A stretch of DNA of 56,014 bases from a virus (Duplodnaviria; Caudoviricetes), in the IMG/VR virus record IMGVR_UViG_3300049046_000063, positions 1 to 56,014 of that record; one strand, given 5' to 3'. The position numbers and the translations under genes are program-made. The notes beneath the pieces are model-generated. The model did no database searches. It was given only the letters and a program-made list of their open reading frames with translations, and had not been told where the DNA came from. How positions within the stretch are numbered: position 1 is the stretch's first letter; the number at the start of each line of letters is the position of its first letter. This document shows, one piece after another, positions 417 through 17,012 of this stretch.

Positions 417-439
417 CGGTTTTCTCGCTGGGTGTGTTC

Positions 440-697: not shown

Positions 698-704
698 GAT
701 TCTC

Positions 705-890: not shown

Positions 891-980
891 CGTCAACATG
901 CTCTTGAGCACACAAGGACCACGGTCGCAAAAACAACCGCAAGAGCCACTGCAACCTCGGTTAAAGTTGGACCACCGGTT

Positions 981-1656: not shown

Positions 1657-1662
1657 GGTGGT

Positions 1663-3283: not shown

Positions 3284-3332
3284 GTTTTCCTCCCTTTCAG
3301 CGGGCACAAAAGATCCCGCAGTCACACTATAG

Positions 3333-3806: not shown

Positions 3807-3837
3807 AGAAGTCTCCGATCTCGAGAATTCCGCGTCA

Positions 3838-4102
3838 AATCTGGATGCTGAATCTGGCAGTAAGAACGTGAGACTTTCAGGAAGTGCTTGTTTTTGGCAT
3901 GAGCCGAGCAGGACTCGAACCTGCGACCCACTGGTTAAAAGCACTTGACGCGCTTTTGTGACACCGTCAGACAGCGCGTGACAGATTACCGATTCAGCCC
4001 AATTTTCCGCGGATAAAACACGCCTCATTATAGCAGCCGTTGTGACATCACGGGACATTGATATACCATCCTGATTCTCACAAATCTGGCAGTTGAATCT
4101 GG
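3838..4102. mobile_element. attP: attP region with putative arm-type and Xis-type sites
   Basis: AATCTGG pairs spaced 13 bp apart on both sides of the core (3838/3851 and 4083/4096); GACA-containing hexamers phased at 10 bp (3958/3968/3978 and 4042/4052). Confidence 0.7.
3900..3941 (-). tRNA. 3' half of tRNA-Lys(UUU), the attP core (not a full tRNA gene)
   Basis: Minus strand reads CTTTTAA (anticodon loop) CCAGTGGGTC GCAGG TTCGAGT CCTGC (T-arm) TCGGCTCA; no 5' half present. Confidence 0.85.
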
Positions 4103-4106
4103 ATGT

Positions 4107-5228
4107 ATGCCCCGAGCTCGCACTGGAAGTTTTTGGTATGACCGCAACGGCGATCTGTATGCGCGCGTAACCTGGACCGACTCTAAGGGGAAGGTGCGCG
4201 AGAAACGCAGGAAGTCGATCAGCGGCACGAAGCGCGAGGCGCGCGAGCACATAAAGGAAATTCTCGAAGAGATCGAAGAGCAGGGCGATCAGGCAATCGA
4301 CGCCGCCGGTCTCACCTTCAAACAACTGGTCGACCACTACAAAAACAACTACGCGATCGAGGCTGAATACGATCGCAAGGGAATTAAGACTGCAGGAATG
4401 CGTTCGTGGAAAGATGCGCGCCGAAAGGCTGAGGCCTTGCTTGATTACTTTGGCCCAAAGAAGCGCGTTCGAGATTTTACCTATGGCGACCTCTCGCGAT
4501 TCAAAGCCGCGCGCATTAGAACTCCAAAGCGAACCGGCGGCGCGCGTCAGATCGCCAGCGTTCATCGGGAGCTCGAAATCCTCAGACGAATGTTTCGCAT
4601 TGCTGTTCAAAGCAGATGGTTGCGGCTCAGCCCGTTCAATGAAGGAGATCCACTGATTGAGCAGGCCGAAGAGCACCAGCGCGAGCGCATCGCGACGAAG
4701 GAAGAAGAAAGCGCCTTGCTCGCAGCCTGCGACGAAGACGAACGCCGCAAGCACCTCAGGCCGTTTTTGATCCTGGCCTTCGATACCGGCTTTCGACCGA
4801 TTGAAATGAAGTCGCTCACGGTCAAAGATGTCGACTTTGAAGATAACTGTATTTGGGCCGTGTCCTACAAAGGCAAGCGCATGAAACGCCGGCCGTTCGA
4901 CATGACCGCGCGCCTGCGAACGGAAATGCAAAAACTCTGCGCGGGGAAAAGACCCGGCCAACTGGTATTTGGATTCAAGTCCGTGAAGCGATCCTTTGCG
5001 ACCGCCAAACGCGTTGCGGCAGAGAGAGGCATTGACATGAAAGGCTTTCGCCTGTACGACGCGCGCCACACGGCGACTACGCGACTGGTGCGCCGGGGAA
5101 TGAGTCTCGAAGAAACTGGAAAGCTGATGGGCCATTCTCAACCTAAAACCACCTGGCGTTACATGCACGTCGACAAGTCGCGTCGGCGCCGCGCGGCTGA
5201 ATTGCTCGAGCAGGAAGATGAAGATTAA
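4107..5228 (+). CDS. int: Tyrosine integrase
   Basis: DTGFR (R), K, YDARH (H/Y-x-x-R), LMGH and TWRY catalytic residues; adjacent to a tRNA-derived att core. Confidence 0.95.
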   Translation: MPRARTGSFWYDRNGDLYARVTWTDSKGKVREKRRKSISGTKREAREHIKEILEEIEEQGDQAIDAAGLTFKQLVDHYKNNYAIEAEYDRKGIKTAGMRSWKDARRKAEALLDYFGPKKRVRDFTYGDLSRFKAARIRTPKRTGGARQIASVHRELEILRRMFRIAVQSRWLRLSPFNEGDPLIEQAEEHQRERIATKEEESALLAACDEDERRKHLRPFLILAFDTGFRPIEMKSLTVKDVDFEDNCIWAVSYKGKRMKRRPFDMTARLRTEMQKLCAGKRPGQLVFGFKSVKRSFATAKRVAAERGIDMKGFRLYDARHTATTRLVRRGMSLEETGKLMGHSQPKTTWRYMHVDKSRRRRAAELLEQEDED

Positions 5229-5428
5229 GCCGCTTTCTTTCGGGCGTTTTTTTCGCCGCGCTTGTCGTATTCGTCTATATGCCGCTGGAGATAGAAGATC
5301 CTGCCGCTCGGCGTTTTGATGAAGTTGATGTATCGCCTCTCTCGCCAGCGTTTCGAGGTTCGGCGCGTGATGCCATACATCTCGCAAAACTGTTCGTCTG
5401 TGTATCTCTTTTCAAGTTGTTCACTCAT
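5225..5428 (-). CDS. xis: Excisionase (MerR-type HTH)
   Basis: YT..QFCEMYGITRRT.KRWR...KTPSGRIFY; convergent with int. Confidence 0.8.
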   Translation of the reverse strand: MSEQLEKRYTDEQFCEMYGITRRTSKRWRERRYINFIKTPSGRIFYLQRHIDEYDKRGEKNARKKAA

Positions 5429-5712
5429 ACTGCCCACCATTTCTGATCGTCATTCCCTGTCTGCGTAACTCTTACATGGCCTAACGTCACAAGCTCCGGC
5501 AAACGTCTCGCGAGTTGGTATCTGTCGAGCGTGCCAAGTTTCGCTAGTTCCTTCGAGCTGCGACCGGGAAACTGTTTCACCAACTCCAAGGCAATAAGTC
5601 TCTGCCCTTTCAGTGCTCCACTTCGACGCATCTGATCCTCTGCACGTTTGGAAGACAGAGGATCTGTTCGACGGGAGCGCGGGACTTCGAAGTTGAAAGA
5701 GGGTTGGATCAT
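5425..5712 (-). CDS. Winged-helix DNA-binding protein
   Basis: SRRTDP.SS..A and ELA....DRYQLARRLPEL motifs typical of a phage wHTH family. Confidence 0.7.
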   Translation of the reverse strand: MIQPSFNFEVPRSRRTDPLSSKRAEDQMRRSGALKGQRLIALELVKQFPGRSSKELAKLGTLDRYQLARRLPELVTLGHVRVTQTGNDDQKWWAV

Positions 5713-6149
5713 GCGATCAGCTTTTGATCTTCTTTGATTCGCGCTATCGGGTGCTGATGCCGGATCTCCGAGACTTGGATCAGCTTCGCGGTCATCGCGT
5801 CGCGATCAACGTCTTCGGCCTTCTTGCGCAGGCGTTTCGCCTTCTTCTTTAGCGCCGACACGCGCTCGCCATCTGGCAGCGCGGAGTTGACCACATCGTC
5901 CAGATGCGTCGCGCCGTGAACGAACTCGCCAGCGTAACCGCCGAATGAAACTTGTAATTGCATTGCTGGCTTGTCTGGCCCGGCGTATACCTTCTGTGCT
6001 TCTACCTCTATAGTTAGGCGGGCGGAATAAACCGCCCGTGGAAGCATCTCTGCCACCAGTGCAGTCAGGTCAAAGACTTCACCGCTGTCTGGGTCTTCCG
6101 GCCCGTAGTCGAGCATAACCAATACACGTTGGACTTTTCGTTTGCTCAT
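5709..6149 (-). CDS. Hypothetical protein
   Basis: 146-aa ORF with ATGA overlap. Confidence 0.6.
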   Translation of the reverse strand: MSKRKVQRVLVMLDYGPEDPDSGEVFDLTALVAEMLPRAVYSARLTIEVEAQKVYAGPDKPAMQLQVSFGGYAGEFVHGATHLDDVVNSALPDGERVSALKKKAKRLRKKAEDVDRDAMTAKLIQVSEIRHQHPIARIKEDQKLIA

Positions 6150-6599
6150 ACTGCTGCTACCGCCTCTCTGTGTTTACGCGTGCACGCCGAAGGACTTGAT
6201 TGGTTGGTGGAACGGCGTGACGACCGCAATAGTAGAAGAACGAAATGCCATTCGTATTTCCCGTATTCCACTCAACCGTCTTGCAGAATTCGGCCTGTGC
6301 GCGACAGTCGACCGATCCGCAAACGATTCTCTTTGAATCGCACTTTTTTAGCTTTCGAAGCGTTCCGTTGCCGTCGCGCTGGTTGCCACTGACGTTCAGC
6401 CCTGAAGGACGCGGCACGTAGTTGCGACACGCCCCGCATGCGCAGGCGCCAACAACTATAGGCTGCTCATTGAAGGCATGCGCCCATTTTGGACAGTGGC
6501 AGTTGTCACAACGCGATCTCCATCCCGCAGTGTTGGCGAGTGCTTCATAGAACGCACCGGGCGTGGTCTGATAACTTGCTTTGCTGTCGACGTGTACGC

Positions 6600-7712
6600 T
6601 CATACCTCTGCTGCTACCGCCCTTGCTTTCGGGTATTCGTTCCACTCACGACCGTCGAGTAATCGGCCTGCTGCTTTCTTGCCGACCGACTTGAACCGCA
6701 CCGCCACTTGTTCAGGATCAACCTCGTAATCATTGCTGCAACAGTCGGGCAATATGCGTTCGCCTTCCTGATCGTAAACAGCCGTTCCGTTGATGACCTC
6801 GTCACCGTCGCGAACAATACCGACGGGCTCAAGTTGACCCCACTGTTTGAAGAAAAACGGCACATCGGCCGCAACACATTGATCGCGGAGAGATCTGGCC
6901 CAGTCTGGATGTATCGGTCGCGCCTTTGGTCCGGATTCGCCGCCGCACACAACCCAATCAATCGAGCCTTCCATCGTCGGCACGGATTCCAGATCAATCA
7001 GCCCTAACAATGGTTCCGCACTAATCCAACGAACAGCAGCGAGCGTCTCCATTAGTAGCGGGATTCTTTCGTCTGCGGTCTTTTGATCTTCTACTGAGAC
7101 ACCAAGCCAGACATTCGGAAGCGTGAACGTTGAGGCGGGCCACCATCGCATACCCCCAATCCAGTCGAAGGTAGGCCATGCGCATCCTGGCGGCGGTGTG
7201 GTTCCCAGCGTTTCGAGGTATTCAGCGAACATCTGCCCGCGCGGTGACGGGTGCGCTTTGCGTTGTTCCTTCGGACCGCGCACTAACTGCGGCTCCCGTG
7301 GTTCGCCCTCCGTGTTGGCCCATCTCTTAAACCAGTCGAGCATCCTCGCTGGCCGTTTCGTAAGAATCTGAAACGTATGCTGTGGGCACTGTCGCATCAC
7401 GTCGAAAACGCGGAGAATCGCGCCATCAGAAAGCGACTCGTGAAACAAATCCGACATTGAGTTCACGAAGATCATTGCTGGCTTGCGCCAGCGCAGGGGA
7501 TCGTTAACGTGTTCCTCAATCAGTCGGACTTTGCCTGTCCAATGCGCCCCCGAATCGTTTCGATAGGCCAGCCCTTCGTATGGCATCCCCGGCCCTGAGA
7601 AACGAGCGGCTGCGGTTTCGGCATAGCAGTGCTCACAGCCGCGACTGACACGACTACATCCGCGAATTGGATTCCAAACCTTGTCACACCACTCGATCTT
7701 CGTATCGCCCAT
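6600..7712 (-). CDS. Phage Gp37/Gp68 (DUF5131) family protein
   Basis: TKIEW.D.VWNP.RGC..VS.GC.HCYA, IFVNSMSDLFH, WVV.GGESG, FFFKQWG. Confidence 0.92.
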   Translation of the reverse strand: MGDTKIEWCDKVWNPIRGCSRVSRGCEHCYAETAAARFSGPGMPYEGLAYRNDSGAHWTGKVRLIEEHVNDPLRWRKPAMIFVNSMSDLFHESLSDGAILRVFDVMRQCPQHTFQILTKRPARMLDWFKRWANTEGEPREPQLVRGPKEQRKAHPSPRGQMFAEYLETLGTTPPPGCAWPTFDWIGGMRWWPASTFTLPNVWLGVSVEDQKTADERIPLLMETLAAVRWISAEPLLGLIDLESVPTMEGSIDWVVCGGESGPKARPIHPDWARSLRDQCVAADVPFFFKQWGQLEPVGIVRDGDEVINGTAVYDQEGERILPDCCSNDYEVDPEQVAVRFKSVGKKAAGRLLDGREWNEYPKARAVAAEV

Positions 7713-8130
7713 ATCGCCTCACGTTCATGTTGTGGCCGGTGATGAATACTCGCGCACGACCGCTTCGGTCATACTTCGGAAAGGAATGCCCGCAGCCGCA
7801 GCCGCACGGGATTACAGGATTAGGATCGCCCTTCCTGCGCCGGTCTCGCGCGGTTGGATGGTGCAGCCTCATATGCGCCGAGCGGTTCGGGAGAGGCTCT
7901 ATATTTGACGGCGAGTTATTGTTCTTAATCTCATCCTCGTGGTGGGCTATTTCTTCTGACGTAAGGTAGCGGCCCATCTTTTCAGCGGCTACCAAACGAT
8001 GCTCGTATGCGTAGCCGCGCACGTCGGCCATCGGGTGATCTTTACCTACGCGGATGAGTACGTAACCGTCCTGTGTGACGGTTCGCCCGCCCTTCCAATT
8101 CCCGTTTGCTGGTCCTGTTGCTTTGCCCAT
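7684..8130 (-). CDS. HNH endonuclease
   Basis: YAYEHRLV...GR.L...E..HH.DE.K.NN...N plus a C-terminal CGCGCG. Confidence 0.85.
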   Translation of the reverse strand: MGKATGPANGNWKGGRTVTQDGYVLIRVGKDHPMADVRGYAYEHRLVAAEKMGRYLTSEEIAHHEDEIKNNNSPSNIEPLPNRSAHMRLHHPTARDRRRKGDPNPVIPCGCGCGHSFPKYDRSGRARVFITGHNMNVRRYGRYEDRVV

Positions 8131-8134
8131 GATT

Positions 8135-8776
8135 TTAATTCCCCGCTCTATGCGCTCGTGAACGACTGCCCTTCTGTTTGGCGTGGTCCGTGATAGAAGG
8201 AAGATCAGGCTTTGGTGCTTCAGGCGCTACGGGCTCAACTGCTTTGCCGTTCCCGGCCTTAACAACCTTTACTTCCCGCTCAGCTTTTGGTTTGCCATTC
8301 TCTTCGAATAGTGGGAGGTCTTTGGTTGCTTTCAGAACGCGTTCAATTTCATCGTTCCATGCTCCGTAGTGCGCAAGGTTCGCATTGAAGAGTCTCGCAT
8401 CGTATTCCATGATCGACGGTCTGCCGGTTTCATCGTCATAGATAAGTCGACACAGTTGAGAATCGATCAAGGCTTCGCGGATGTCGGCCTTCAGGTTCAT
8501 CCACGGCATTCGATAGACCTTCAAGACAACTACGGGCATTGGTCCATCATCATCAGTACGGGCCTCACCGGAAATCAAAAACGCTGCATCGCTGCTCAAT
8601 ACTTTAATTTCGGCGAATACCTGGTGGCCTTTGCTCTTTTTGGAAACTGACGATCCTTTATCGTCTTTCTTGTCCAGCATTAGATAGTGAATTCTTTTCG
8701 AGTAAAGATCCGGGTGATGTCGCTTGATTACTCCCTCTGCTACTTTTGCGACTTCAGAACTTATTTCGTATTGCAT
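8135..8776 (-). CDS. Putative phage metallopeptidase-like protein, HExxH degenerate
   Basis: Similar layout to 28454-29065, but EALIDSQLCR replaces ALVEHELYH. Confidence 0.6.
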   Translation of the reverse strand: MQYEISSEVAKVAEGVIKRHHPDLYSKRIHYLMLDKKDDKGSSVSKKSKGHQVFAEIKVLSSDAAFLISGEARTDDDGPMPVVVLKVYRMPWMNLKADIREALIDSQLCRLIYDDETGRPSIMEYDARLFNANLAHYGAWNDEIERVLKATKDLPLFEENGKPKAEREVKVVKAGNGKAVEPVAPEAPKPDLPSITDHAKQKGSRSRAHRAGN

Positions 8777-8794
8777 GGTCCATCCTTTCGTTTG

Positions 8795-10189
8795 TTAGGC
8801 TGTGGCGAATAACAATCCCTGTTTCGTAACTGCTTCAATTCTTCGCTGGGCTAACTGGCAATACTCCGCGCTCAATTCGATTCCTATAAACTTCAACCCT
8901 TCCAGCATTGCTGCTTTGCCAGTGCTTCCCGATCCGCAGAATGGATCTAGAACGATGCCGCCCGGCGGCGTAACCAGTCGGCAGAGATACCGCATTAGAT
9001 CAACCGGCTTCACTGTTGGATGATGATTCTTGCGAAGACCTAAACCGCGATTGCGAGGATTATCGCCGCCTGGGTTTCCCTCTTTGCGGCTGTCGTCTTG
9101 CTGGCGTGATGTGAGACTTTCCAGCCCTTCCTCGCGATCTTCTTGACTTGCCTTCGCCGCGTAGAAGAACCGTGCTGCAGATCCCGAATCCAAACGGGCC
9201 ATCGCATCGCGGGCCGCTTTCATATCGCCAAAGACGCCTTTGGATAATCGATCTTTGCCGTGCCCGTTTAGATCGCCTTGCTGCCCCGGCGCATCAGGGA
9301 ACGCAGCCAGCACTTCATCTGATCCGTCCGTGATGACGTTCGCGGGCCAGCGCCCTAATTCGTTTTGCTCTGTGCGCTGTTCGGTCCAGCCGCCCTCGTA
9401 AACATCTTCTGGCCGCTGCTCGCATGCGCCGCGCCAGTTGCCATTTCCCTTCGCGCCGTCGACGCGGCATCCGTCGATATTCAATCCACCCGTTCCGTGC
9501 TGTAAGACGTTTTCAGCAACGGTTCCGATCAGTGGTTTGCGCGCCAACACAATTGGCTCGTGTGCGGGTTTTAATGCTGTGCCCCAGCCGTTCCATTGCT
9601 TCGCTGCTTCCGTCGCTGGAGCGCTTAGCAGACGATCATCCTGAGAACGAACGAACGTTCCGATTGGCGGTGCCAACCTGTCTTCACTGCTGCGCTGGAT
9701 GTGACCGCCAGCGTATTCACGGATGCCCGTTACTTCACGATTCGCGCCCGCTGCTGCATCAATCGCCTTGCTCACGTCCAGCGATTTAGGAAATCCCGAT
9801 CCGTAAAGCCATTGAATCTGATCGCGGATCTCAAACCCTGCTTCTTCAATCGCACAAGCTAAGCGGTGGTAAGTACGGGAGCCTCCGAATGCGAGCAAGT
9901 GACCGCCGGGCTTCAGAACGCGCAAAACCTCAGCCCACGTTTCCGGCATAAACGGAACGCCTGATCCGTCCCACGCCTTCCCCATAAATCCTGTAGTGAT
10001 GCGGGCGCGACCTTGCGGCGTATTCAGATTCACGGATGCCTCTCCGGTGCCGCCGCGCTTGTTCGCGGTCAGTTCATAGGGCGGATCGCACACAACAGAA
10101 TCAACCGAACAGTCGGACAGGTCTCGAAGCACGATCCGGCAATCGCCCTCGTACAAGCTAAATCGATCTGACTCGTAATACGGTTTCAC
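8795..10189 (-). CDS. DNA methyltransferase (N4-C/N6-A, beta class)
   Basis: DPPY motif, HPTVKP, VLDPFCGSGSTG. Confidence 0.95.
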   Translation of the reverse strand: MKPYYESDRFSLYEGDCRIVLRDLSDCSVDSVVCDPPYELTANKRGGTGEASVNLNTPQGRARITTGFMGKAWDGSGVPFMPETWAEVLRVLKPGGHLLAFGGSRTYHRLACAIEEAGFEIRDQIQWLYGSGFPKSLDVSKAIDAAAGANREVTGIREYAGGHIQRSSEDRLAPPIGTFVRSQDDRLLSAPATEAAKQWNGWGTALKPAHEPIVLARKPLIGTVAENVLQHGTGGLNIDGCRVDGAKGNGNWRGACEQRPEDVYEGGWTEQRTEQNELGRWPANVITDGSDEVLAAFPDAPGQQGDLNGHGKDRLSKGVFGDMKAARDAMARLDSGSAARFFYAAKASQEDREEGLESLTSRQQDDSRKEGNPGGDNPRNRGLGLRKNHHPTVKPVDLMRYLCRLVTPPGGIVLDPFCGSGSTGKAAMLEGLKFIGIELSAEYCQLAQRRIEAVTKQGLLFATA

Positions 10190-10704
10190 GCAACCCTCTC
10201 GTGTTTAATCAACAGGCCAAAACTACTGAGACTCAACACTGAATCTTTTCGCTTTGGCTGCTCTTGAACTTTTCGAATGAAGTAGTAACGATTATCTCCG
10301 TCAGACTTCGTTTCGATCTCGTTGGTCCACAGAAGCAGATGCGCGATTGCGTCGCAGATCGTGTCTTTGTCGAGCTTGGTTTCCTGTTGAATCTCGCGCT
10401 GCGTCCGCGCGCCGTTGTGGATCGCTTCCTTCACGCGTTCAACGGGAGACAGCCTGGATAAAGGTAGGACCAGTAGCTTTTCGTCGAACTGCGGATCTCG
10501 CAACTGCTCAAGTAGCTTCACCTGCTTAGCCTTCTGCACTTGTCGCCAGTTCTTCTTTCCTATCCTGCTCTGCGCAACTTTTTTGCGAATGTCCTCTTTG
10601 CAATAAAGATTTCGACCATCCTTGCGAGCTCGGCAGATACCGAATTCAGAGACAGGAAGATCGTTGTCGCAGATCGGACAGTGTTTTAAGTTAGGGGGGT
10701 TCAT
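10186..10704 (-). CDS. Zn-finger plus wHTH hypothetical protein
   Basis: CPIC...EF....DG...YCK N-terminus; HTH-like C-terminal half. Confidence 0.6.
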   Translation of the reverse strand: MNPPNLKHCPICDNDLPVSEFGICRARKDGRNLYCKEDIRKKVAQSRIGKKNWRQVQKAKQVKLLEQLRDPQFDEKLLVLPLSRLSPVERVKEAIHNGARTQREIQQETKLDKDTICDAIAHLLLWTNEIETKSDGDNRYYFIRKVQEQPKRKDSVLSLSSFGLLIKHERVA

Positions 10705-11486
10705 TAAAAGAATTCAATTCGATGGCAGTCCCAAAGCCTCGTCATTATCGAGTTGCCCCACACTTCATCTATGCGGCCCCAGTGCGAGCGCAGTTTTTCC
10801 GCGTCGAAGTTGCTTGTTATTACGAGCTGGTGACCAAACGATTTCGCGGCATCAAGAAGATTGAATAATTGCTCTGAAGCAAACTCACTCGGACGCGCCT
10901 TTTCGAATTCATCAAGAAAGATCAGCCAGGGCTTTCCCTGTTTTCTTAAATCAATCGCTCGTACTCGCGGCGTCCATGGATCGCCTTCTTTGATCGATAG
11001 TTCCAGGCGCCGGAATTCATCAAGTAGATCGCGCACACTTGAAGCTACGGCTGGACGTCGAGACGCGAGCGCGTGGCGGTAGATGGCCCAAGCAATATGA
11101 CTCTTTCCTGATCCGTTCCTGCCGGTGAATAGATAAGATTCATCTGGTTTATTTCTAACTAAATCGATGGCTGCCGCCTGCTTGTGATGGTGTGCGGAAC
11201 TCGGTTTCAACCTTCCAAGTCGCGGCATCCCGAACACCGGAGGAATTACAGATAGTTGGGCTTGAATGGTTTTCCTGCGAACGCACAGACAACGCTCCGA
11301 AGCTTTGGCGGCTTTAGCGTTTTCAAGACTTAACTCGCGGATGAATTCGCCCGTCTCCGCGTCGCGAAGCCTCATGCCGGTTCCGTAGCACCGCCAACAA
11401 TTAGCGGACGACCGATTTTGATTTGAATTCGTAAACTCCGGCGCCTGCTCTTGAGCCCGGCGGAGTATTTTGCTGATAGCTTCCAT
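10704..11486 (-). CDS. DnaC/IstB-like ATPase (helicase loader)
   Basis: Walker A GRNGSGKS, Walker B LIFLDE, ITSN, N-terminal Cys motifs. Confidence 0.9.
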   Translation of the reverse strand: MEAISKILRRAQEQAPEFTNSNQNRSSANCWRCYGTGMRLRDAETGEFIRELSLENAKAAKASERCLCVRRKTIQAQLSVIPPVFGMPRLGRLKPSSAHHHKQAAAIDLVRNKPDESYLFTGRNGSGKSHIAWAIYRHALASRRPAVASSVRDLLDEFRRLELSIKEGDPWTPRVRAIDLRKQGKPWLIFLDEFEKARPSEFASEQLFNLLDAAKSFGHQLVITSNFDAEKLRSHWGRIDEVWGNSIMTRLWDCHRIEFF

Positions 11487-12231
11487 TCCCGTTCCCCATT
11501 GGCGGATCTTCGTTGTTGAGCCAGTAGATGAGCCGATTTTGTGTTGCTTGCTTGCCCTTGCGGTGACAGTGGACCAACATCTTGTTGTAAACGTTCCGCA
11601 CGTTCAGGTGTTTGTAGGCCTCGTTGGACTGCATCTCGGCTATGAACTCATCGTCACAGACTCTCTTGCGCGGTTGGCGCGCGGTCACGCGCGCTTCACT
11701 GCTTTTCTGTGATTTGTGATCTGTGTTTTGTGTATTGTGGTTTGTAGATCTCTGATCTGTGATCTGTGCATGCAATTGCATTGCATTTGCATCTACATTT
11801 GCAGTGCTTTTGCTGTGCAATTGCACCTGCATTTGCAGATCGTTTGCTGCAATAATACGTTCACCTTCGACCTTCTCTTCTTCGGCTATGCCTTCTGAGT
11901 TGGTCACTTCGGATTTTCCGTATCGTGTGCGAGCTGCGGTTGATCGAACGGCTGAAATCTCCTTCGCTTTCGCGATCTCTTGATCGGCACGCTTCTGATG
12001 CCAGCCGTCTGATTGTTCGTTGAAAAACTGAGTGAGTACGTTTCTGACCGCGCCTTGCTCTTCCGGTGTGAACGCGCGACATATTCGGTAGAGGGCCAGG
12101 TCGTCGAGCGGGAGCGCCTTTCGCTTGGCGTAGTAGTAATCCAATAGCCGGTTGTATGCTCCGTTTTCCATGAGCGATAAATGCTGAGTGTCGCGGTCGT
12201 AGTCGTCCATGAAACGTGGATACCAGTGCAT
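11401..12231 (-). CDS. Replication initiator (DUF1376/YdaU-like)
   Basis: WYPR...DY..DT.HLS..E.GAY.RLLDYYY; internal repeats; upstream of the DnaC-like gene. Confidence 0.88.
   Translation of the reverse strand: MHWYPRFMDDYDRDTQHLSLMENGAYNRLLDYYYAKRKALPLDDLALYRICRAFTPEEQGAVRNVLTQFFNEQSDGWHQKRADQEIAKAKEISAVRSTAARTRYGKSEVTNSEGIAEEEKVEGERIIAANDLQMQVQLHSKSTANVDANAMQLHAQITDQRSTNHNTQNTDHKSQKSSEARVTARQPRKRVCDDEFIAEMQSNEAYKHLNVRNVYNKMLVHCHRKGKQATQNRLIYWLNNEDPPMGNGNGSYQQNTPPGSRAGAGVYEFKSKSVVR
11705..11852. repeat. Putative replication origin (iterons) inside the initiator gene
   Basis: Dense TTTGCA/TGCAATTGCA repeats at ~11766-11852 next to ~7-bp GATCTGT-type repeats at ~11705-11767, as in lambda O-type origins. 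Confidence 0.65.
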
Positions 12232-12510
12232 TTGACTTGTCGATTTAACCGCCGGAAGAGTTTTCTACGCCGCCTTGTTCTTTACCGCTCGCCCAAGATC
12301 TCTCGGACACTGCTGTCCTACCCTGTACTTATTGCCGAACGTTTCGCCGCAGTGCATACACACAAGAACATCGGCCGCATCTTGGCTCTTGTCGTTTGTG
12401 ATTAATCTGCCCGGACAGCGACGATTCATGGTTTTGTTAAAGGCGAGCCAGCCCCAGGAGGTCCAGCACTGGCCCGCCGGTGTCCGCGCTGCCTCGTCTG
12501 CGCAGACAAA

Positions 12511-13392
12511 TCAATCCTTGTATTCCGAAAGCGCGTCTTTTAGCTGGACCAACTCATCAAGATTGAGAGCATTAATATCTCGCCCGCCGGTCTGCTTCTC
12601 GATTTGGGCCTCCGTGAACATGTCTTTGATCGACCCGCGGAGCTTCTTCTTTTCCGCTTTTTCATCGATCACGGCAGGCTCTACCACCGCGCTCTGTGTT
12701 GATTCAGAGGAAGCGGCTTCAGTCTCAATAATCTCCGCTTCCACAACCGCAGGATGGTGTTGTAGTTGTGCGGCCATCCGCTCAGCCTTCGATTGCTGAC
12801 CGTTCGCTGGTCCAAGCGGAACGCCCTCAGTTTCCGCGATCCTCTCTGCTTCGTCAGGGTCGTAAATCCCAGCTAGGCCAAAAGCCACGCGTGCGCACTG
12901 AATTAACGCTTTATGTCGCAGCATCCGTGCAGGCCACTTGGTCCACGGCTCCGTGTTGCGCGCGCACTCACTCATGTATTCGGTGACTTTGGTAGGGTGA
13001 GCGCGATCTTTGCGATAGATGACCGCTGTCACACCGCGTAGCTCGCCAGCGTCGTTGAATTGGTCGTTGAACTCAATACCGTCTAAAGCCGTCTGCCGAT
13101 TGATAAGAGTGCTCCATCCGTCAATCGAGACAATCGGGACAATGCCACCGCCCTTCGCCGGGAACGCGTAGATCTCTTTAATGAACGGATTGAGATCGTA
13201 TTGCTTGGCAACCGCCAGGAACGCGGCAACCTGTTCGTTGCTGGGGTTTTGTTTGTCCGAAGGGAAAACCGTTTTAATAAGAGTACTCAGAAACTTTGTG
13301 GGCTCAAGGCCGTGACGGTTTGCCATGAAACCTATCAGCGATGTTCCCGCTACTACCGCAGGCTTTGTTTCCGCGGGTGCTGGTGTTGTCAT
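12511..13392 (-). CDS. bet: Bet/RecT-family ssDNA annealing protein
   Basis: LNPFIKEIYAFP..GGGIVPIVSIDGW and W...P.RMLRHKALIQCAR.AFG. Confidence 0.95.
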   Translation of the reverse strand: MTTPAPAETKPAVVAGTSLIGFMANRHGLEPTKFLSTLIKTVFPSDKQNPSNEQVAAFLAVAKQYDLNPFIKEIYAFPAKGGGIVPIVSIDGWSTLINRQTALDGIEFNDQFNDAGELRGVTAVIYRKDRAHPTKVTEYMSECARNTEPWTKWPARMLRHKALIQCARVAFGLAGIYDPDEAERIAETEGVPLGPANGQQSKAERMAAQLQHHPAVVEAEIIETEAASSESTQSAVVEPAVIDEKAEKKKLRGSIKDMFTEAQIEKQTGGRDINALNLDELVQLKDALSEYKD

Positions 13393-14258
13393 TTGCTACC
13401 TTTCATTTTGCGAAGGACTCGAAATTTCGTCGGCGCCACTGTGTAGCCGCTTCTGCTCTGCTCAAAATAAGTGAGACAGCCAGCGCCGTATCTCGCGCCT
13501 TCGGCGTCATCCATTGCGGCCAGAATCGCGGCCTGGGTATCTTCAACGCGCTTCTTTGCCTTCGACAGAGCCGCTGTGGCCTCAAACCACTCCATCACGA
13601 GACGGTCTGCAACCGTAACTGTCTTATTTGGCTCGCGCCGGACTCGCTTAACCACATCGAGCGAAGGGATAAACGTCTGTGGCGGCGTGTCGGTTAAGAC
13701 GTGCTCGCGCCAGAATTGATCTCCGATTGCTATCGCGCTTTCCATCAGCGCGTCGTTGCGCTTGATCTCGTAAACACGTATTTCAAAGTGACGAAACGCA
13801 GGCAGCAGCACTGGAATCCAAGCTACGCGGCATTCTTTTCCCGTCGCCTTCGTTACCACGTACATTTGTTCGTGAACCTGAATCAGAACGCGCTCGGGAA
13901 TCTCGTCGGTTCCGAGCGGTCCCCACTCTTCACCCAGGCCGCTCGTCTTAGCCTCGACAATTTCCGGCAAAGACCCGTCGATAAATCCATCCAGGTTTGA
14001 GCAAAAGTGCCCGTTTGTAAAAAACAGGTGCCGCTGAAGAGTTACGCCGCGCTTCTTCTCAAAGTGATCTAATACCGCTCCTTCGAAGGTTGTGCCGAAA
14101 TCCTGGACTGCCGACTCCTTTTCATCAACAACTACGCGTCCGGTCTTCTCGAGCCAGACGTCGCCGATTGTTCGCCATGAATCCATTCCCAACACAGAGG
14201 GAAGGTCGGACGATCCGAGGTATTTTTTGCGCAGTTGGCGCTGCTCGTTGGTGATCAT
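13389..14258 (-). CDS. YqaJ-like viral recombinase exonuclease
   Basis: R..YLGSSD...LG, NLDG, EAKT, Q...QM motifs; paired with bet. Confidence 0.92.
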   Translation of the reverse strand: MITNEQRQLRKKYLGSSDLPSVLGMDSWRTIGDVWLEKTGRVVVDEKESAVQDFGTTFEGAVLDHFEKKRGVTLQRHLFFTNGHFCSNLDGFIDGSLPEIVEAKTSGLGEEWGPLGTDEIPERVLIQVHEQMYVVTKATGKECRVAWIPVLLPAFRHFEIRVYEIKRNDALMESAIAIGDQFWREHVLTDTPPQTFIPSLDVVKRVRREPNKTVTVADRLVMEWFEATAALSKAKKRVEDTQAAILAAMDDAEGARYGAGCLTYFEQSRSGYTVAPTKFRVLRKMKGSK

Positions 14259-14421
14259 CTCAACGCCCTGTCCGCTTTCTCTTCAGCCACTTGCTCGCGT
14301 ATCAGATCGCCCAAATCCATGAACCGCCCACAGGATTCGCACAAGCACATCAGATCGTGCTCTTCGACTTCCTCACCTAAGCGGTCAAACTCTTCGAGCA
14401 TTAGAATTTCAATATCGGCGC

Positions 14422-14643
14422 TCACTTGACAGCCTCCGCAATCACGAACAAAGAGGCGAGCCCGACGATCAGCACGATCAGAACCAACACTGCATACAAA
14501 GCCTCTTGTCTTCGGAATGAACTACGCTGCCGTTGCTCATTGAGGGTGTCGCGCCCGCGCACGGCTGTGATCATCTGAGCGTGATTAGGCGGAAAGTATC
14601 TTGTCGAGAGTTTTGATGGCGTGCTATTCTGTTGCTGGTCCAT
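14422..14643 (-). CDS. Small protein with C-terminal transmembrane helix
   Basis: ALYAVLVLIVLIVGLASLFVIA. Confidence 0.55.
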   Translation of the reverse strand: MDQQQNSTPSKLSTRYFPPNHAQMITAVRGRDTLNEQRQRSSFRRQEALYAVLVLIVLIVGLASLFVIAEAVK

Positions 14644-14764
14644 AAAGCCACTCTGTTAGTTGATCCGGCGTTTCTCTTTCAGGGAGAGCGCCGGATTTAG
14701 TTTTTCAAAGGGAAGCGAGCCAGCCCCAAGCCCCAATTTTAGAGACCGGCCCGCTCCCACAAAC

Positions 14765-15205
14765 TCACCCGGCTTTTCTCAGCGAGACCGCCTCAATATG
14801 CGCCAGTCTTCGTTTGCTGTAAGCAATTGACTGCGCCAGCTCCATGCCCTTGCGAGCGGGCGGCGCATCTTGCAGCTCAGCCGATACGTAGTCGCTCTGC
14901 TCCTTTGCAACCTGAGCCGCGCTCGGAACAGGGAGTTTCCCTTGCGTTTCCCACTCATCCCAAAGGCTTTCAATGTAGGCTCGCAGCACCGGCCATTGGT
15001 CCGGACACGTTTCGATAACGTGGAATTGCTCCAAGAGCCCTTCGGCGGTCGCCAGCTTTCGCTCATCATTTGGATTGAGACGTCTTGATATGTCGCCATC
15101 ACTTACGCCCATGCCGTGAGCAATCAGCTTTTGTGCTCCACGAGGTATCACCAGCGAGAACAGCGACTTTACTTCGTACTGTGTAGGGGCCGGTTTCATG
15201 CTCAA
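14765..15205 (-). CDS. CII-like phage regulatory protein
   Basis: K.IA..MGVS...ISRRLNPND HTH motif; directly downstream of the Cro-position gene. Confidence 0.65.
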   Translation of the reverse strand: MSMKPAPTQYEVKSLFSLVIPRGAQKLIAHGMGVSDGDISRRLNPNDERKLATAEGLLEQFHVIETCPDQWPVLRAYIESLWDEWETQGKLPVPSAAQVAKEQSDYVSAELQDAPPARKGMELAQSIAYSKRRLAHIEAVSLRKAG

Positions 15206-15285
15206 AATTCCTTCGTTTCAATACTTGAGCCGATAGTTATCCCTCAGGTAACGTTCGTGATCGAACGCAACCTCTCTCCAACCGA

Positions 15286-15459
15286 TTAGGCTGCTTTTGC
15301 CAGTTCTGGATAACGCCTTGCCAGCTTTGAAAGCTTTTCCTCGATTGCCTTTCGGACAAACTCGGAAGCGGGCACTTCGAGAATTTCAGCGGCCCTTTCA
15401 AGCCGCTCCATTTGTTCGCTGCTGGCGCGTAGATGTAAGCGTGTGTCCTTTTTTCTCAT
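15286..15459 (-). CDS. Ribbon-helix-helix protein in the Cro position
   Basis: KDTRLHLRAS.EQMERLERAA..LEVP.SEFVRKAI matches the RHH pattern. Confidence 0.8.
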   Translation of the reverse strand: MRKKDTRLHLRASSEQMERLERAAEILEVPASEFVRKAIEEKLSKLARRYPELAKAA

Positions 15460-15475
15460 AACGTTTGCACGTTCA

Positions 15476-15578
15476 GTGTAAGTACAGCGGGAGTACATAT
15501 AGCACTGTGTACGTACACTGTCAACACCTATTTCCGAGAATTCATTGTTTTCTTCTGTGCGGTTGATGTAAGTACGAT
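15476..15578. promoter_or_regulatory. Divergent switch region: leftward promoter and TGTA(C/A)GTAC operators
   Basis: GTGTACGTACAC (15507-15518) lies between minus-strand TTGACA and TATATG, 17 bp apart; variants GTGTAAGTACAG (15476) and ATGTAAGTACGA (15567). Confidence 0.75.
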
Positions 15579-15581
15579 GTC

Positions 15582-15920
15582 ATGGCAACCGAAGAACGCG
15601 TAAATATCCGCATTTCTCCAGAAGTAAAGCTTGATGGCATTGCTTTGGGTGTAATGCACGGGTGGGATCTCAGTACGCTTCTGCGAACCCTCATTATTCA
15701 CGAAACGCAAAAAGAAACGAAGGAACGACCTGGCGTGTTTAAGGACGCTCGGAAGAAAGCGCTTGAAATTGTCGAGCGTGAAAAACAGAAGGCCGCTCAG
15801 CGCAACGGTAAGAAAAGACGGGTAGCAATAACCAATGTCAAGGCCAATGAAGATGATCGATCCTCTCGAATACAAGACAGTGCCGGTAGAAGGGCAAGTG
15901 GCGGCGGGCGCAAGCGTTGA
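15582..15920 (+). CDS. Ribbon-helix-helix protein in the CI repressor position
   Basis: RVNIRISPEVK...G..LSTLLRTLI RHH pattern; divergent from the Cro-like gene. Confidence 0.7.
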   Translation: MATEERVNIRISPEVKLDGIALGVMHGWDLSTLLRTLIIHETQKETKERPGVFKDARKKALEIVEREKQKAAQRNGKKRRVAITNVKANEDDRSSRIQDSAGRRASGGGRKR

Positions 15921-16257
15921 GTTTCTGCCAACGGTACGGACGCGCGAGGTTCGGCTGCCAAACTGGGCGGACGACTCTGATCGGTTCGTGCTTACTGAAG
16001 TGTGCGGAGACTCGCTCTGCGATGCCGGTATATTCAGCGGTGACTACGCCCTTATCCACCTCAACCCAAACGAAATCAAAGACGGTGATCTGATCGCGGC
16101 CTTCACGCCGGACGGGATGTTGATCAAGTTTTACTTCAACAACGATGATGGTCGTATCCGACTCGAGGGAGCAAACCCGAGCCGACCAGCACGCTACTAC
16201 GATCCCGAAGACATAAGCGTACAAGGAAAGGTGATCCGCACAGAGCGAGATCGCTGA
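15835..16257 (+). CDS. Stand-alone S24 (LexA/UmuD-like) peptidase
   Basis: VEGQVAAG (Ala-Gly cleavage site), V.GDSL (Ser), LIKF (Lys), L..AN, VQGKV; no DNA-binding domain; in-frame stop at 15829. Confidence 0.88.
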   Translation: MSRPMKMIDPLEYKTVPVEGQVAAGASVEFLPTVRTREVRLPNWADDSDRFVLTEVCGDSLCDAGIFSGDYALIHLNPNEIKDGDLIAAFTPDGMLIKFYFNNDDGRIRLEGANPSRPARYYDPEDISVQGKVIRTERDR

Positions 16258-16270
16258 AAGGCAAAACCTC

Positions 16271-16774
16271 ATGTTGAAAACAATCCTGCTCGCCGCCCTC
16301 ATTCTTGCCGTCTGCGCTCCCGCGGTTGCACAGAAATCGCCGCAGGCCGAGAAGTCGGCCAATGCGGTAAAATGGGCCTTTCCAAAAGCAGGACAGACAC
16401 CCTCAAGCATCAACGGCGAAGTCTATTACGAGTTGGCCGAAGGAATACTCGCCAAACGCACCACTCTTGGCGAAAGTAAAAACATTGAAGCTTCGGCGGT
16501 TTACTTCAGCCCAAAGGCGCTGGCAGTGTTCCGCCTGGTGCAGGTAACAGAACCCAAAGAAATCCCGAACTTAGACCGATTCCTGATAATGATGGCCGTC
16601 CATCTCTCCGTCGAAGATCCGCTTAACAAAGGCTTCCATAAATACATCGGCCCTAACATGATGTACGGTGAACTCTTTTACTTCTACCAATTGAAAAACG
16701 GGCAGTTCATAGCGGCGCGCATCGCTGACGATCAAAGCCACGTCCTTATCCTGCCCGGCCCAGCCACGAACTAG
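16271..16774 (+). CDS. Exported protein in the immunity operon (possible superinfection exclusion)
   Basis: Sec signal MLKTILLAALILAVCAPAVA; position after the repressor genes. Confidence 0.6.
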   Translation: MLKTILLAALILAVCAPAVAQKSPQAEKSANAVKWAFPKAGQTPSSINGEVYYELAEGILAKRTTLGESKNIEASAVYFSPKALAVFRLVQVTEPKEIPNLDRFLIMMAVHLSVEDPLNKGFHKYIGPNMMYGELFYFYQLKNGQFIAARIADDQSHVLILPGPATN

Positions 16775-16815
16775 CAGCTAACAATCCGCCCTAAAAACAA
16801 TTCGCACGATTATGC

Positions 16816-16850
16816 TTGACGTGTACGTACATTGAGCGTACAGTGTACTC
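16816..16850 (+). promoter_or_regulatory. Rightward early promoter with operator
   Basis: TTGACG-17bp-TACAGT with GTGTACGTACAT in the spacer, the same operator as at 15507. Confidence 0.78.
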
Positions 16851-16868
16851 GTTGTGGAGGCGAAGACA

Positions 16869-17012
16869 ATGCAAAGAGATTCACTAATGCTAACGCTGGT
16901 AGTCCTGGCAATGATTCTTGCTCTGGCTATTTCAGTAGGGCCGGCAGCAAAGAAACGATTGGGAGAGATGCTTACCGATCCACTCAAGGTTGAACAGATG
17001 GTGAAGGCGTAA
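16869..17012 (+). CDS. 47-aa membrane protein (not in ORF track)
   Basis: GGAGG RBS; MQRDSLMLTLVVLAMILALAISVGPAAKKRLGEMLTDPLKVEQMVKA. Confidence 0.65.
   Translation: MQRDSLMLTLVVLAMILALAISVGPAAKKRLGEMLTDPLKVEQMVKA

Follow-up and report, generated by a model that had tools for sequence, protein, structure and literature searches.

The best explanation of the primary immunity switch in this temperate soil phage is that its CI/LexA-type repressor consists of two subunits; the DNA-damage sensor, in phages normally part of the repressor chain, seems to form a separate subunit. The window, i.e. the whole stretch of 56,014 nucleotides that was analysed, is a phage record of 56 kb from soil that is ~65% complete. 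Its positions 15286-16850 are the divergent early-promoter region of the phage: the leftward operon holds recombination and replication genes, and the rightward operon leads into lysis and structural genes. A preliminary description had placed a lysis/lysogeny switch here, and divergent early promoters with two ribbon-helix-helix (RHH) genes and a separate S24 gene were indeed found. To our knowledge, all characterised RecA-sensing repressors of phages and the SOS system (CI, C2, LexA, SetR, PrtR and UmuDAb) carry HTH and S24 on one chain. In a small family of Acidobacteriota-linked soil phages and prophages, the two functions are located on separate, overlapping genes, with an RHH protein as the presumed reader. 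The features of the region are the following:

15286-15459, minus strand: RHH57, a 57-aa RHH protein, in a Cro-like position at the head of the leftward early operon
15477-15486, no strand: O-a, operator-like, TGTAAGTACA, one mismatch to the palindrome, just downstream of P_L
15496-15524, minus strand: P_L, leftward early promoter, read by eye; -35 TTGACA (15524-15519), 17-nt spacer, -10 TATATG (15501-15496)
15508-15517, no strand: O-b, exact palindrome TGTACGTACA inside the P_L spacer
15545-15574, plus strand: putative maintenance promoter for ORF112-S24, deduced from conserved blocks; TTGTTT, 18 nt, TAAGTA
15567-15576, no strand: O-c, operator-like, TGTAAGTACG, 5 nt upstream of the ORF112 ATG
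15582-15920, plus strand: ORF112, 112 aa, proposed DNA-binding subunit
15847-16257, plus strand (ORF opens at 15835): S24 protein, LexA-C-terminal-domain-like, 136 aa from the ATG at 15847, proposed RecA*-sensing subunit
15847-15920, plus strand: dual-coding overlap; frame 0 encodes the ORF112 tail, frame +1 the N-terminal arm of S24 including the cleavage-site strand
15904-15909, plus strand: Ala24-Gly25 codons (numbered from 15835), predicted self-cleavage bond
16012-16014, plus strand: Ser60 codon (GDSL), catalytic serine, invariant in 12/12 sequences
16126-16128, plus strand: Lys98 codon, catalytic lysine, invariant in 12/12 sequences
16271-16774, plus strand: 167-aa protein with an N-terminal signal-peptide-like segment and no family match, an accessory gene (moron) in the immunity cassette
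16816-16844, plus strand: P_R, rightward early promoter, found by the scanner; TTGACG, 17 nt, TACAGT
16822-16831, no strand: O-d, exact palindrome TGTACGTACA inside the P_R spacer

Five related loci were compared, namely the window, L001, L002, L003 and L005, of which L002 and L003 are near-identical to each other. The nearest cellular copy of the switch is a prophage in a 7.3-Mb MAG of the Acidobacteriota (Pyrinomonadaceae). Searches for further related loci with a single S24 protein as query (genome contigs and viral contigs) and with the S24 alignment (viral contigs) retrieved none.

Both divergent genes had been described as RHH genes, and this assignment holds for each of them on different grounds. 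The listed ORF of RHH57 extends to 15498, and the start conserved among its homologues is the ATG at 15459. On its own, RHH57 gives weak matches to RHH families of Pfam; within its family, three of four members match RHH_1 (best E 3.3e-6), and NikA-like, TacA1 and RHH_3 matches are found as well, while the family profile retrieved nothing meaningful from the PDB sequences. RHH57 is thereby predicted to be a strand-helix-helix member of the RHH superfamily (Arc/MetJ/CopG). ORF112 has no match in Pfam, PHROGs or NCBIfam, and the best match of its profile among PDB sequences, RelB, is non-significant (E 0.29). Its AlphaFold (AF2) model, with a pLDDT of ~95 over residues 11-70, comprises an extended segment (residues 1-12) and two helices (13-26 and 30-48). 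Using Foldseek, this model superposes on Arc, CopG, RelB and other RHH structures (TM by target 0.75-0.88, rmsd 0.7-1.8 Å) in short, well-superposed alignments that are not significant at E 0.5 or worse; Arc (1myl) is among the best matches, with an rmsd of 0.9 Å over 43 columns, and the nearest models in the ESM Atlas are RHH clusters. Judged by its model, ORF112 adopts an RHH fold of the same superfamily. When the two families are aligned to each other, hhalign yields a probability of 95.2% (E 2.6e-8), and an R-x-N/H-x-R pattern, read by eye, is located on the predicted DNA-reading strand of both proteins; by this profile alignment, RHH57 and ORF112 are divergently transcribed RHH paralogues. 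In ORF112, residues ~5-48 form the RHH domain, residues 50-79 a long third helix, and residues 80-112 a basic tail that is disordered and ends in GGGRKR.

The ORF of the S24 gene (15835-16257) is in the +1 frame relative to ORF112, is preceded by two in-frame stops just upstream (TAG at 15823 and TAA at 15829), and overlaps ORF112 by 86 nt when counted from the first ATG, in agreement with what had been described before. The ATG at 15853 is conserved in 5/5 loci and the one at 15847 in 4/5; a purine-rich, Shine-Dalgarno-like AAGG precedes the former in four of the five loci, at 7 nt in the window and at 8 nt in L001-L003. Because of this conserved ATG and AAGG, the functional overlap is taken to be 68-74 nt, and S24 is probably translated from its own start. 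The +1 overlap of this length recurs in all five loci. The frame change across it, which the preliminary description had left to be verified against reads, is no assembly indel: a contig from the independent run X4 spans 15566-16032 with no gaps and a single substitution, and the X6 contig (15623-15885) and the X3 contig (15867-16017) show no differences. The split is therefore real. It is equally found among homologues, as neither the 13 close relatives of S24 (all 90-154 aa, with PF00717 only) nor the 10 relatives of ORF112 (all 88-125 aa; 11 matches including itself among 1.84 billion representatives) contain a fused protein.

A programmed +1 frameshift, or else a sequencing indel that escaped detection, could in principle still join the two frames into one RHH-S24 repressor of ~225 aa, as the preliminary description had considered. 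Such a fusion would recreate the classical layout of a DNA-binding domain plus S24, and both the retention of the +1 overlap in the five loci and the unusual conservation of its synonymous sites are in line with it: among S24 codons that are invariant at the amino acid level, the third base is invariant in 6/11 inside the overlap versus 6/61 outside (4 sequences only). By this excess of synonymous conservation over four sequences, the ORF112 tail looks selected. We nevertheless regard a fusion as extremely improbable, since the independent contigs are free of gaps and five diverged loci agree, since no slippery sequence or codon pair for +1 re-pairing was seen by eye upstream of the Ala-Gly site, since the overlap lacks conserved RNA structure (consensus -6 kcal/mol, 0 covarying pairs, z = +1.35), and since S24 has a conserved start of its own and no fused relative of either protein was found in the databases searched. 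Moreover, the genes do not overlap at all in L011, a locus from another Acidobacteriota genome: a distant RHH gene (31% identity) ends with a TAA stop and is followed after 9 nt by a stand-alone S24 gene (28% identity), the product of which keeps QAG, GESM and K.

The S24 protein matches Pfam PF00717 with an E-value of 1.2e-15, and its GQ[VL]AAG segment aligns to the cleavage-site strand of LexA (GRVAAG), with the A-G kept in 10/10 homologues covering the region. Just before this strand, the short N-terminal arm carries a conserved P-x-E-Y. The scissile bond is located on the same chain as the catalytic core, and a DNA-binding domain is absent from the S24 polypeptide; the Ala-Gly site and the Ser/Lys dyad are intact, as previously noted. 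The S24 domain is hence a conserved polypeptide in its own right, equipped with both a cleavage site and a catalytic dyad. As the canonical site is kept in every homologue that covers it, self-cleavage is favoured over cleavage in trans, in which S24 would be a RecA-activated protease cutting the ORF112 tail. The latter had been proposed on account of an SAG in that tail; AAG or ASG is found in the tail of some ORF112 relatives, and UmuD-type S24 proteins reportedly cleave intermolecularly, which speaks for it. However, the SAG of the window is missing from L001, L002, L003 and L005, and the A/G-rich motif is the +2-frame reading of the GQVAAGAS codons of the S24 gene and lacks the LexA-like strand context. 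The RHH protein of L011, where the genes are non-overlapping, has a Gly-rich basic tail without A-G, and it is not obvious that an RHH repressor would be inactivated by trimming a few residues from its C-terminus. The proposal is thus left unsupported, and cleavage of ORF112 by S24 is very improbable.

Could S24 belong to the mutagenesis machinery rather than to the switch? UmuD is a stand-alone S24 protein whose scissile bond is located in a short N-terminal arm; it works with a Y-family polymerase (UmuC-type), which is usually encoded by the neighbouring gene. HumD of phage P1 is found without a phage-borne polymerase. The S24 protein resembles both in its size (~136-140 aa), in the short arm with the scissile bond and in the lack of a DNA-binding domain, and its fold is matched in Foldseek by UmuD' (1ay9, 8gmt) along with LexA and CI (E down to 7.7e-8). 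It differs from them in scoring far below the family cut-offs, in overlapping a repressor gene and in having ORF112 and a secreted protein as neighbours. Against the UmuD model NF007621 it reaches 20.3 bits (cut-off 110), and the HumD family (NF051876) gives no match; the LexA model TIGR00498 is matched with an E-value of 1.1e-14 and 54.5 bits, which is below the cut-off of 110.95 and covers model positions 77-198 only. All 16 of its matches among PDB sequences are LexA.

An S24 protein without a role in the switch would be an accessory protein, UmuD/HumD-like or RecA-modulating, that rides on the repressor transcript, either as a mutagenesis accessory or as a RecA-filament decoy. It is common for prophages to express accessory genes together with the repressor, from one mRNA, and the same operon holds another accessory gene, that of the 167-aa protein. 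The S24 protein of L011 scores as UmuD-like, matching UmuD (9.3e-26) better than LexA (1e-18); the pairings of RHH and S24 in the window-type loci and in L011 may be independent events, or UmuD-like in function. Such a decoy would be comparable in effect to Hex of phage 434, which is described as a second protein from an ORF partly overlapping cI on the maintenance transcript, and acts on RecA-dependent induction by damping RecA-mediated cleavage (PMC3564112). Unlike the protein studied here, Hex does not belong to the S24 proteins, and in 434 the S24 domain remains fused to the repressor. As ORF112 itself lacks an S24 domain, a RecA decoy would find nothing to protect in the present phage. 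The closer match to LexA than to UmuD, the uniform LexA matches in the PDB and the absence of a Y-family polymerase gene (PF00817) from the 56-kb record, which is ~65% complete, also count against an accessory role, as does the +1 overlap with the RHH gene that is kept in 5/5 loci while the accessory gene downstream varies. We consider such a role quite improbable.

The same palindrome, TGTACGTACA, had been noted in the spacers of both early promoters, and it is present there at 15508 (P_L) and 16822 (P_R). Together with the one-mismatch copy at 15477 this amounts to three matches where 0.52 are expected, a count reached in 0/100 shuffles. The exact 10-mer occurs in 5/5 loci, and the four sites keep their positions and spacing: exact copies of O-b are found at the same place in L001, L003 and L005, where an equivalent of O-a is located 31-36 bp away from O-b; O-c is 58-59 bp from O-b in these three loci and in the window (4/4); and an exact copy of O-d is found downstream of the S24 gene in L001, L002 and L005. 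The palindrome is predicted from this sequence conservation to be an operator. MetJ, Arc and other RHH dimers recognise a short symmetric site by placing a two-stranded sheet in its major groove, and by analogy to these structures a 10-bp palindrome would fit one RHH dimer. As to the promoters, P_L was missed by the promoter scanner because its -10 lacks the final T; its -35 TGTCAACAC block is invariant in 4/4 loci, and the layout of P_R is conserved in L001 and L002. The maintenance promoter has weak hexamers and is absent from the scanner output; since it ends 7 nt before the ATG, the ORF112-S24 mRNA may be leaderless.

The palindrome was also considered as a host SOS box and rejected: in the 7.3-Mb host MAG, the 10-mer occurs twice, both times at the prophage, and is absent upstream of both host lexA-like genes. 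A few LexA-box patterns are likewise absent upstream of these two genes. The PF00717 profile search of the MAG listed 3 matches and is not exhaustive, as it missed the prophage S24 copy on contig C128.

The elements of the switch could work together in the following manner: RHH dimers of ORF112 would read TGTACGTACA and its variants at P_L (O-a, O-b), at their own start (O-c) and at P_R (O-d). The overlapping gene would supply the S24 protein, which brings the Ala-Gly site and the Ser/Lys dyad and has no DNA-binding domain. The acidic S24 dimer would bind the basic C-terminal extension of ORF112, or the short N-terminal arm of S24 would hold ORF112; by joining RHH dimers into higher oligomers, S24 would enable cooperative binding of separated operators, and it may bridge the left and right operator sets, 0.8-1.3 kb apart, in analogy to the looping of lambda CI. 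RecA-ssDNA filaments would then induce self-cleavage of S24, whereupon the assembly would fall apart and both early operons would be derepressed, and RHH57 would act like Cro on the operators proposed for ORF112. A complex of ORF112 and S24 is hinted at by the overlapping, co-transcribed genes, by the disordered basic tail of ORF112 and by the opposite charges of the two proteins, with a pI of 10.6 for ORF112 (10.4-10.6 across loci) versus 4.6 for S24 (4.6-5.0). Because of gene linkage, overlap, opposite charge and analogy, a CI-like repressor in which an RHH subunit binds the DNA and a non-covalently attached S24 subunit senses RecA is given slightly less than an even chance; within it, we infer the identity of the operator-binding protein, the contact between ORF112 and S24, the dependence on RecA and the effect of cleavage. 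A more tentative proposal is that the S24 arm (P-x-E-Y) or the basic tail of the RHH protein tethers the RHH dimers, and that RecA-triggered self-cleavage cuts this tether; the event which in lambda parts two domains of a single chain would then part two proteins. Since self-cleavage would remove only ~20-24 residues of S24, the model requires that either this arm or a conformational change is important. Oligomerisation could also be provided by the long third helix of ORF112 itself, as in Mnt, and S24 would then be dispensable for cooperativity.

A different division of labour would be one in which ORF112 represses alone and S24 is an inactive sensor, a pro-antirepressor that RecA-stimulated removal of the arm converts into a form pulling ORF112 off the operators. 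Of the six more distant ORF112-like RHH genes that were found in other Acidobacteriota genomes, five lack an S24 gene in their ~3-kb loci; an RHH protein can therefore work alone, which counts against the two-subunit repressor and is expected of a repressor that needs no S24 to repress. The UmuD-like architecture of S24, i.e. a stand-alone protein of ~136 aa with the cleavage site in a short arm (cf. UmuD to UmuD'), the opposite charges and the linkage of the RHH and S24 genes would be compatible with a pro-antirepressor as well. On the other hand, overlapping genes usually point to constitutive complexes, and no example of an S24 protein that is activated as an antirepressor was found in the literature searched. 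We consider a pro-antirepressor unlikely.

The two-subunit repressor shares features with several known systems. In the immunity region of lambda, the repressor gene lies between two outward early promoters that share operators, and here the S24 gene occupies such a position; the S24 core with its Ser/Lys dyad after the cleavage-site strand GQVAAG is also as in CI and LexA. Unlike in CI and LexA, the S24 chain has no DNA-binding domain, a separate RHH protein stands in for the fused HTH, and the predicted cleavage would remove a short arm only. In the immI region of P22, the divergent RHH repressors Mnt and Arc control an antirepressor gene (ant) in a secondary immunity region. Both systems have two homologous RHH proteins encoded divergently from a region with operators, and in both the longer protein is extended at its C-terminus; in contrast to P22, the RHH pair here is coupled to an S24 gene and takes its place at the two early-operon promoters. 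No antirepressor gene was identified among the ORFs scanned, which are part of those of the record. Type II toxin-antitoxin systems typically have an antitoxin whose disordered C-terminal tail binds a partner encoded immediately downstream or by an overlapping gene. The disordered tail of ORF112, the overlapping downstream partner gene and the (non-significant) RelB match follow this layout; here the partner is an S24 autopeptidase and not a toxin, and release is proposed to occur by RecA-triggered self-cleavage and not by Lon degradation of the RHH protein. In type II systems such as RelBE, the downstream partner of the RHH antitoxin is described as a transcriptional co-repressor (PMC2812701). 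PMC13148647 deals with a fused HTH-S24 repressor.

A similar arrangement is that of F55 from the archaeal fusellovirus SSV1 (PMC9608457): this RHH protein recognises repeated short sites to repress early promoters and senses DNA damage through a non-covalent partner, the recombinase RadA, to which it reportedly binds directly. Both are RHH lysogeny regulators; in the phage, a LexA-like self-cleaving protein is proposed to be interposed between recombinase and repressor, and the two belong to different domains of life. In its arrangement, the switch would be a bacterial parallel to F55-RadA. No precedent for the pairing of an RHH repressor with an S24 protein encoded separately was found in the literature searched, the coverage of which leaves out most subscription journals. 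If ORF112 and S24 work together, the S24 domain would be a detachable damage-sensing subunit, a portable module that confers SOS control on an unrelated DNA-binding fold without gene fusion; two small proteins and a 10-bp operator would then form a defined system for derepression without a covalent link, and, where such genes are annotated as 'LexA' or 'UmuD', a class of immunity modules would be going unnoticed in little-studied phyla.

The gene of the 167-aa protein is absent from L001, L002 and L005, and no homology is detectable between its product and the 159-aa secreted protein encoded downstream in L011. No further S24 gene is present elsewhere in the 56-kb record. Another small gene, of the XRE-type HTH class, is located at 52863-53192; in view of this gene and of the incompleteness of the record, a further regulator is possible.

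The genes at positions 1-15,460 of the record (56,014 bases, classed as linear and ~65% complete) lie on the minus strand and include those for a RecE-like exonuclease, a RecT/Bet-like annealing protein, a primosomal protein, a DnaC-like loader, a methyltransferase and a RusA-like resolvase; from 15,582 to the end of the record the genes lie on the plus strand, with an endolysin, a terminase, a portal-like DUF4055 protein, a Mu F-like protein and tail proteins among their products. The cassette of ribbon-helix-helix (RHH) and S24 genes is therefore the exact point at which the two early operons diverge. It comprises the following elements:

15286-15459, minus strand: ORF for RHH57, a 57-aa RHH protein
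15524-15519 and 15501-15496, minus strand: leftward early promoter P_L, TTGACA and TATATG separated by 17 nt, read from the sequence
15582-15920, plus strand: ORF for ORF112, a divergent 112-aa RHH protein
15835-16257, plus strand: ORF for the S24 protein, 140 aa, in the +1 frame relative to ORF112 and preceded by in-frame TAG (15823) and TAA (15829)
16271-16774, plus strand: ORF for a 167-aa protein with a signal-peptide-like N-terminus
16816-16844, plus strand: rightward early promoter P_R, a promoter-like TTGACG-17-TACAGT found by promoter scan

These ORF calls coincide with the preliminary description, which had read two divergent RHH genes and a separate S24 ORF in the +1 frame with an in-frame stop just upstream. 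P_L is absent from the output of the promoter scanner because its -10 element lacks the final T.

The split into separate RHH and S24 genes is real, since independent assemblies, related loci, protein databases and a distant relative agree. In soil sequencing runs from different studies, a 467-nt contig (run X4) spans 15566-16032 with no gaps and one substitution relative to the window, and contigs from runs X6 (15623-15885) and X3 (15867-16017) are identical to it; an assembly indel in the overlap, initially considered as a possible refutation, is excluded. The same gene layout is found in three metagenome contigs (L001-L003) and a prophage-like region of a Pyrinomonadaceae MAG (L005), with S24 proteins of 63-74% identity. 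The upstream RHH ORF in these loci ends in ...G-R-K-R or ...N-K-R, its TGA falling within the Val-Glu codons of the S24 gene, and the S24 start lies 68-74 nt upstream of the RHH stop, in the +1 frame, in five of five loci, which represent four lineages, L002 and L003 being almost identical; the proposed split, overlapping arrangement is hence a conserved one. A search with the S24 protein returned 17 proteins, namely the window's own, 13 close relatives (90-154 aa, PF00717 only) and three distant full-length LexA proteins, and ORF112 matched 11 proteins among 1.84 billion representatives, all of 88-125 aa; a fused RHH-S24 form occurs in neither set of matches. Where an S24 relative has the sequence ASIEY, the stop codon shared with the RHH gene could not occupy the corresponding position.

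With a profile of the ORF112 family, seven of 401 Acidobacteriota genomes gave a match. At one distant locus (L011), an RHH protein with 31% identity to ORF112 over 51 residues is followed by TAA, 9 nt and a stand-alone S24 gene, whose product shares 28% identity over 69 residues and retains Q-A-G, G-E-S-M and a Lys; the pair is flanked upstream by a small divergent RHH gene and downstream by a gene for a secreted protein. The two genes can therefore occur side by side with no overlap. As the S24 protein of L011 looks more UmuD-like than LexA-like, the two RHH-S24 pairings may be of separate origin. ORF112-like proteins can also occur without S24: in five other Acidobacteriota genomes, no S24 gene was found in the ~3-kb locus of the ORF112-like RHH gene.

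A +1 frameshift producing an RHH-S24 fusion, as the overlap and the relative frame might suggest, is a weaker alternative. The S24 gene has its own start: an ATG at 15853 is kept in all five loci, in four of them with AAGG 7-8 nt before it, and an upstream ATG (15847) is lost in L003. By-eye reading revealed no codon pair permitting +1 re-pairing upstream of the Ala-Gly codons, and the overlap contains no conserved RNA structure (consensus -6 kcal/mol, 0 covarying pairs; single-sequence z = +1.35). Of the S24 codons that keep their amino acid across four sequences, those within the overlap also keep an unchanged third base in 6 of 11 cases, vs 6 of 61 outside it. This extra constraint can be read as dual coding, with the basic RHH tail itself under selection; in keeping with this, the non-overlapping RHH protein of L011 has a Gly-rich basic end as well and most family members carry K/R-rich C-terminal tails.

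RHH57 yields weak matches to six RHH families, with RHH_1 matched by three of the four members of its small family (best E 3.3e-6). ORF112 has no match in Pfam, PHROGs or NCBIfam. Its predicted structure consists of an extended segment (residues 1-12), helices at 13-26, 30-48 and 50-79 and a disordered tail (80-112), with a pLDDT of ~95 over residues 11-70, and superposes on Arc, CopG, RelB, NikA and antitoxin RHH domains with TM-scores by target of 0.75-0.88 and rmsd values of 0.7-1.8 Å over 41-48 columns; the Foldseek E-values are 0.5 or worse, which is not significant at such a small domain size, and an ESM Atlas comparison agrees with the RHH fold. Profile-profile comparison of the ORF112 and RHH57 families gave a probability of 95.2% (E 2.6e-8, 56 columns), and the divergent genes therefore encode paralogous RHH proteins, of which the longer one bears a C-terminal extension. 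Both share an R-x-N/H-x-R pattern on the predicted strand, a feature that would fit recognition of the same sites by the two proteins.

The S24 ORF encodes an S24 peptidase domain (PF00717, E 1.2e-15) that is closest, among named families, to LexA rather than to UmuD. The LexA model TIGR00498 matches at E 1.1e-14 with 54.5 bits, below its cut-off of 111, covering LexA positions 77-198 only, and the UmuD family scores 20.3 bits against a cut-off of 110; all 16 matches of the S24 family profile to PDB sequences at E <= 1e-5 are LexA. The AlphaFold model (mean pLDDT 79, core >= 84 from about residue 41, N-terminus flexible) resembles LexA, lambda CI and UmuD' structures in a structure search. All 12 family members keep Ser60 (in GDSL) and Lys98, and a strand V-x-G-Q-[VL]-A-A-G aligns with the cleavage-site strand of LexA, its Ala-Gly being kept in all ten homologues that cover the region. 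An accessory, UmuD- or Hex-like role of the S24 protein, unrelated to the switch, would be a weaker explanation; for Hex of phage 434, a published account (PMC3564112) describes an accessory ORF that overlaps the repressor and is carried on its transcript. Cleavage of ORF112 in trans by S24 is likewise among the weaker possibilities: the preliminary description had proposed an SAG motif in the ORF112 tail as the target, but homologues do not keep this motif, and the A/G-rich stretch of the tail results simply from reading the S24 cleavage-site codons in the other frame.

Exact copies of the palindrome TGTACGTACA lie at 15508, inside the P_L spacer (minus strand), and at 16822, at the start of the P_R spacer, as had been noticed at the outset, and a copy with one mismatch lies at 15477; these three matches in the window compare with 0.52 expected, and none of 100 shuffles reached three. 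All related loci carry exact copies as well: L001, L003 and L005 have one in the divergent region, and L001, L002 and L005 have one shortly after the S24 gene, where a GTACA half-site lies inside the -10 element after the palindrome in three loci. The order of the three divergent-region sites (15477, 15508 and 15567 in the window) is preserved in four of four loci, as are the intervals between them, 31-36 bp and 58-59 bp, and the -35 block of P_L is invariant. In the 7.3-Mb host MAG, TGTACGTACA is found only twice, both at the prophage (a reversed control pattern occurs three times), and it was not found upstream of the two LexA-like genes of this MAG; it is therefore a putative phage-specific operator. 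A host SOS box was considered as its identity and is ruled out by this distribution. These two host genes, present in addition to the stand-alone S24 gene of the prophage, encode full-length LexA-like proteins (open frames, 225 and 215 aa). In L011, the region ahead of the distant RHH gene (1395-1450) contains ~2.5 tandem copies of CATTTGTCAAGCA in place of the palindrome, a putative different operator for a related RHH protein.

A fourth variant, TGTAAGTACG at 15567, ends 5 nt before the ATG of ORF112 and coincides in part with a TA-n-n-TA element, weak but conserved, located 7 nt before the same ATG, with a TTG-type element 18 nt further upstream. No Shine-Dalgarno sequence precedes the ATG (15582) in the window, L001, L003 or L005. 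This suggests a leaderless, autoregulated maintenance transcript, comparable to that of cI from PRM in lambda.

Of the readings considered, the likeliest is that ORF112 and S24 would form a two-subunit repressor, in which ORF112 would be the DNA-binding subunit and S24 its RecA-responsive partner; everything from the binding step on is inferred. The acidic S24 protein (pI 4.6-5.0) would bind the basic ORF112 (pI 10.4-10.6; tail 11.6) and link RHH dimers, leading to cooperative occupation of sites 3-6 helical turns apart, and perhaps also, over a distance of 0.8-1.3 kb, bridge the left and right operator sets. The assembly would then fall apart upon self-cleavage at Ala24-Gly25, with RHH57 possibly in the role of Cro. 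The main rival uses the same parts with the sign reversed: cleavage would activate S24 as an antirepressor. The immunity region of lambda sits between left and right operator sets, and the cassette of ORF112, S24 and, here, a secreted accessory protein is placed alike. For the two-subunit repressor, the nearest documented functional parallel, in the literature searched, may be F55 of SSV1, an RHH lysogeny regulator that, according to PMC9608457, senses damage via non-covalent contact with RadA; a structural analogy may be drawn to RelBE, where the downstream partner of an RHH antitoxin acts as co-repressor (PMC2812701). The component parts are already known: RHH repressors (Arc/Mnt), S24 autopeptidases (LexA, CI, UmuD) and overlapping accessory ORFs (434 Hex). 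In the literature searched, no RHH reader at a primary switch was found paired with a separate, overlapping LexA-like gene bearing its own cleavage site, a combination that is kept throughout one phage lineage here and also has a second, diverged form.

Contigs from other soil runs match the cassette and then depart from the window: that of X3 is unlike it after 15321, those of X4 and X6 after 16996/16997, substitutions are numerous at 16868-16940 in one X4 contig, and further short contigs of X4 match only from 16877 and are unlike before. The immunity cassette has the appearance of a mosaic unit that related phages exchange. The 167-aa protein encoded between the S24 gene and P_R has no family match and is missing in L001, L002 and L005; a different, non-homologous secreted protein occupies its slot in L011, and the 167-aa protein may serve in lysogenic conversion or exclusion. 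Second in the leftward operon, a 146-aa gene (14765-15205, minus strand), kept in L003 and L005, encodes a helix-turn-helix-looking stretch (...RKRIAQHLGI...DLSRR... in L003) and has no meaningful Pfam match (two chance-level rows, E about 0.1) and no PHROG match; it is a candidate for an additional early regulator. The window ORFs scanned include no integrase. Near the right end of the record lie a small XRE-family HTH gene (52863-53192, plus strand; HTH_3 E 1.8e-10), possibly another regulator, and a 316-aa ORF (54520-55470, plus strand) with weak matches to IS1-type transposases, and PF18894, 'putative phage metallopeptidase', is represented by two genes, one per arm (8135-8776, minus strand; 28454-29065, plus strand).
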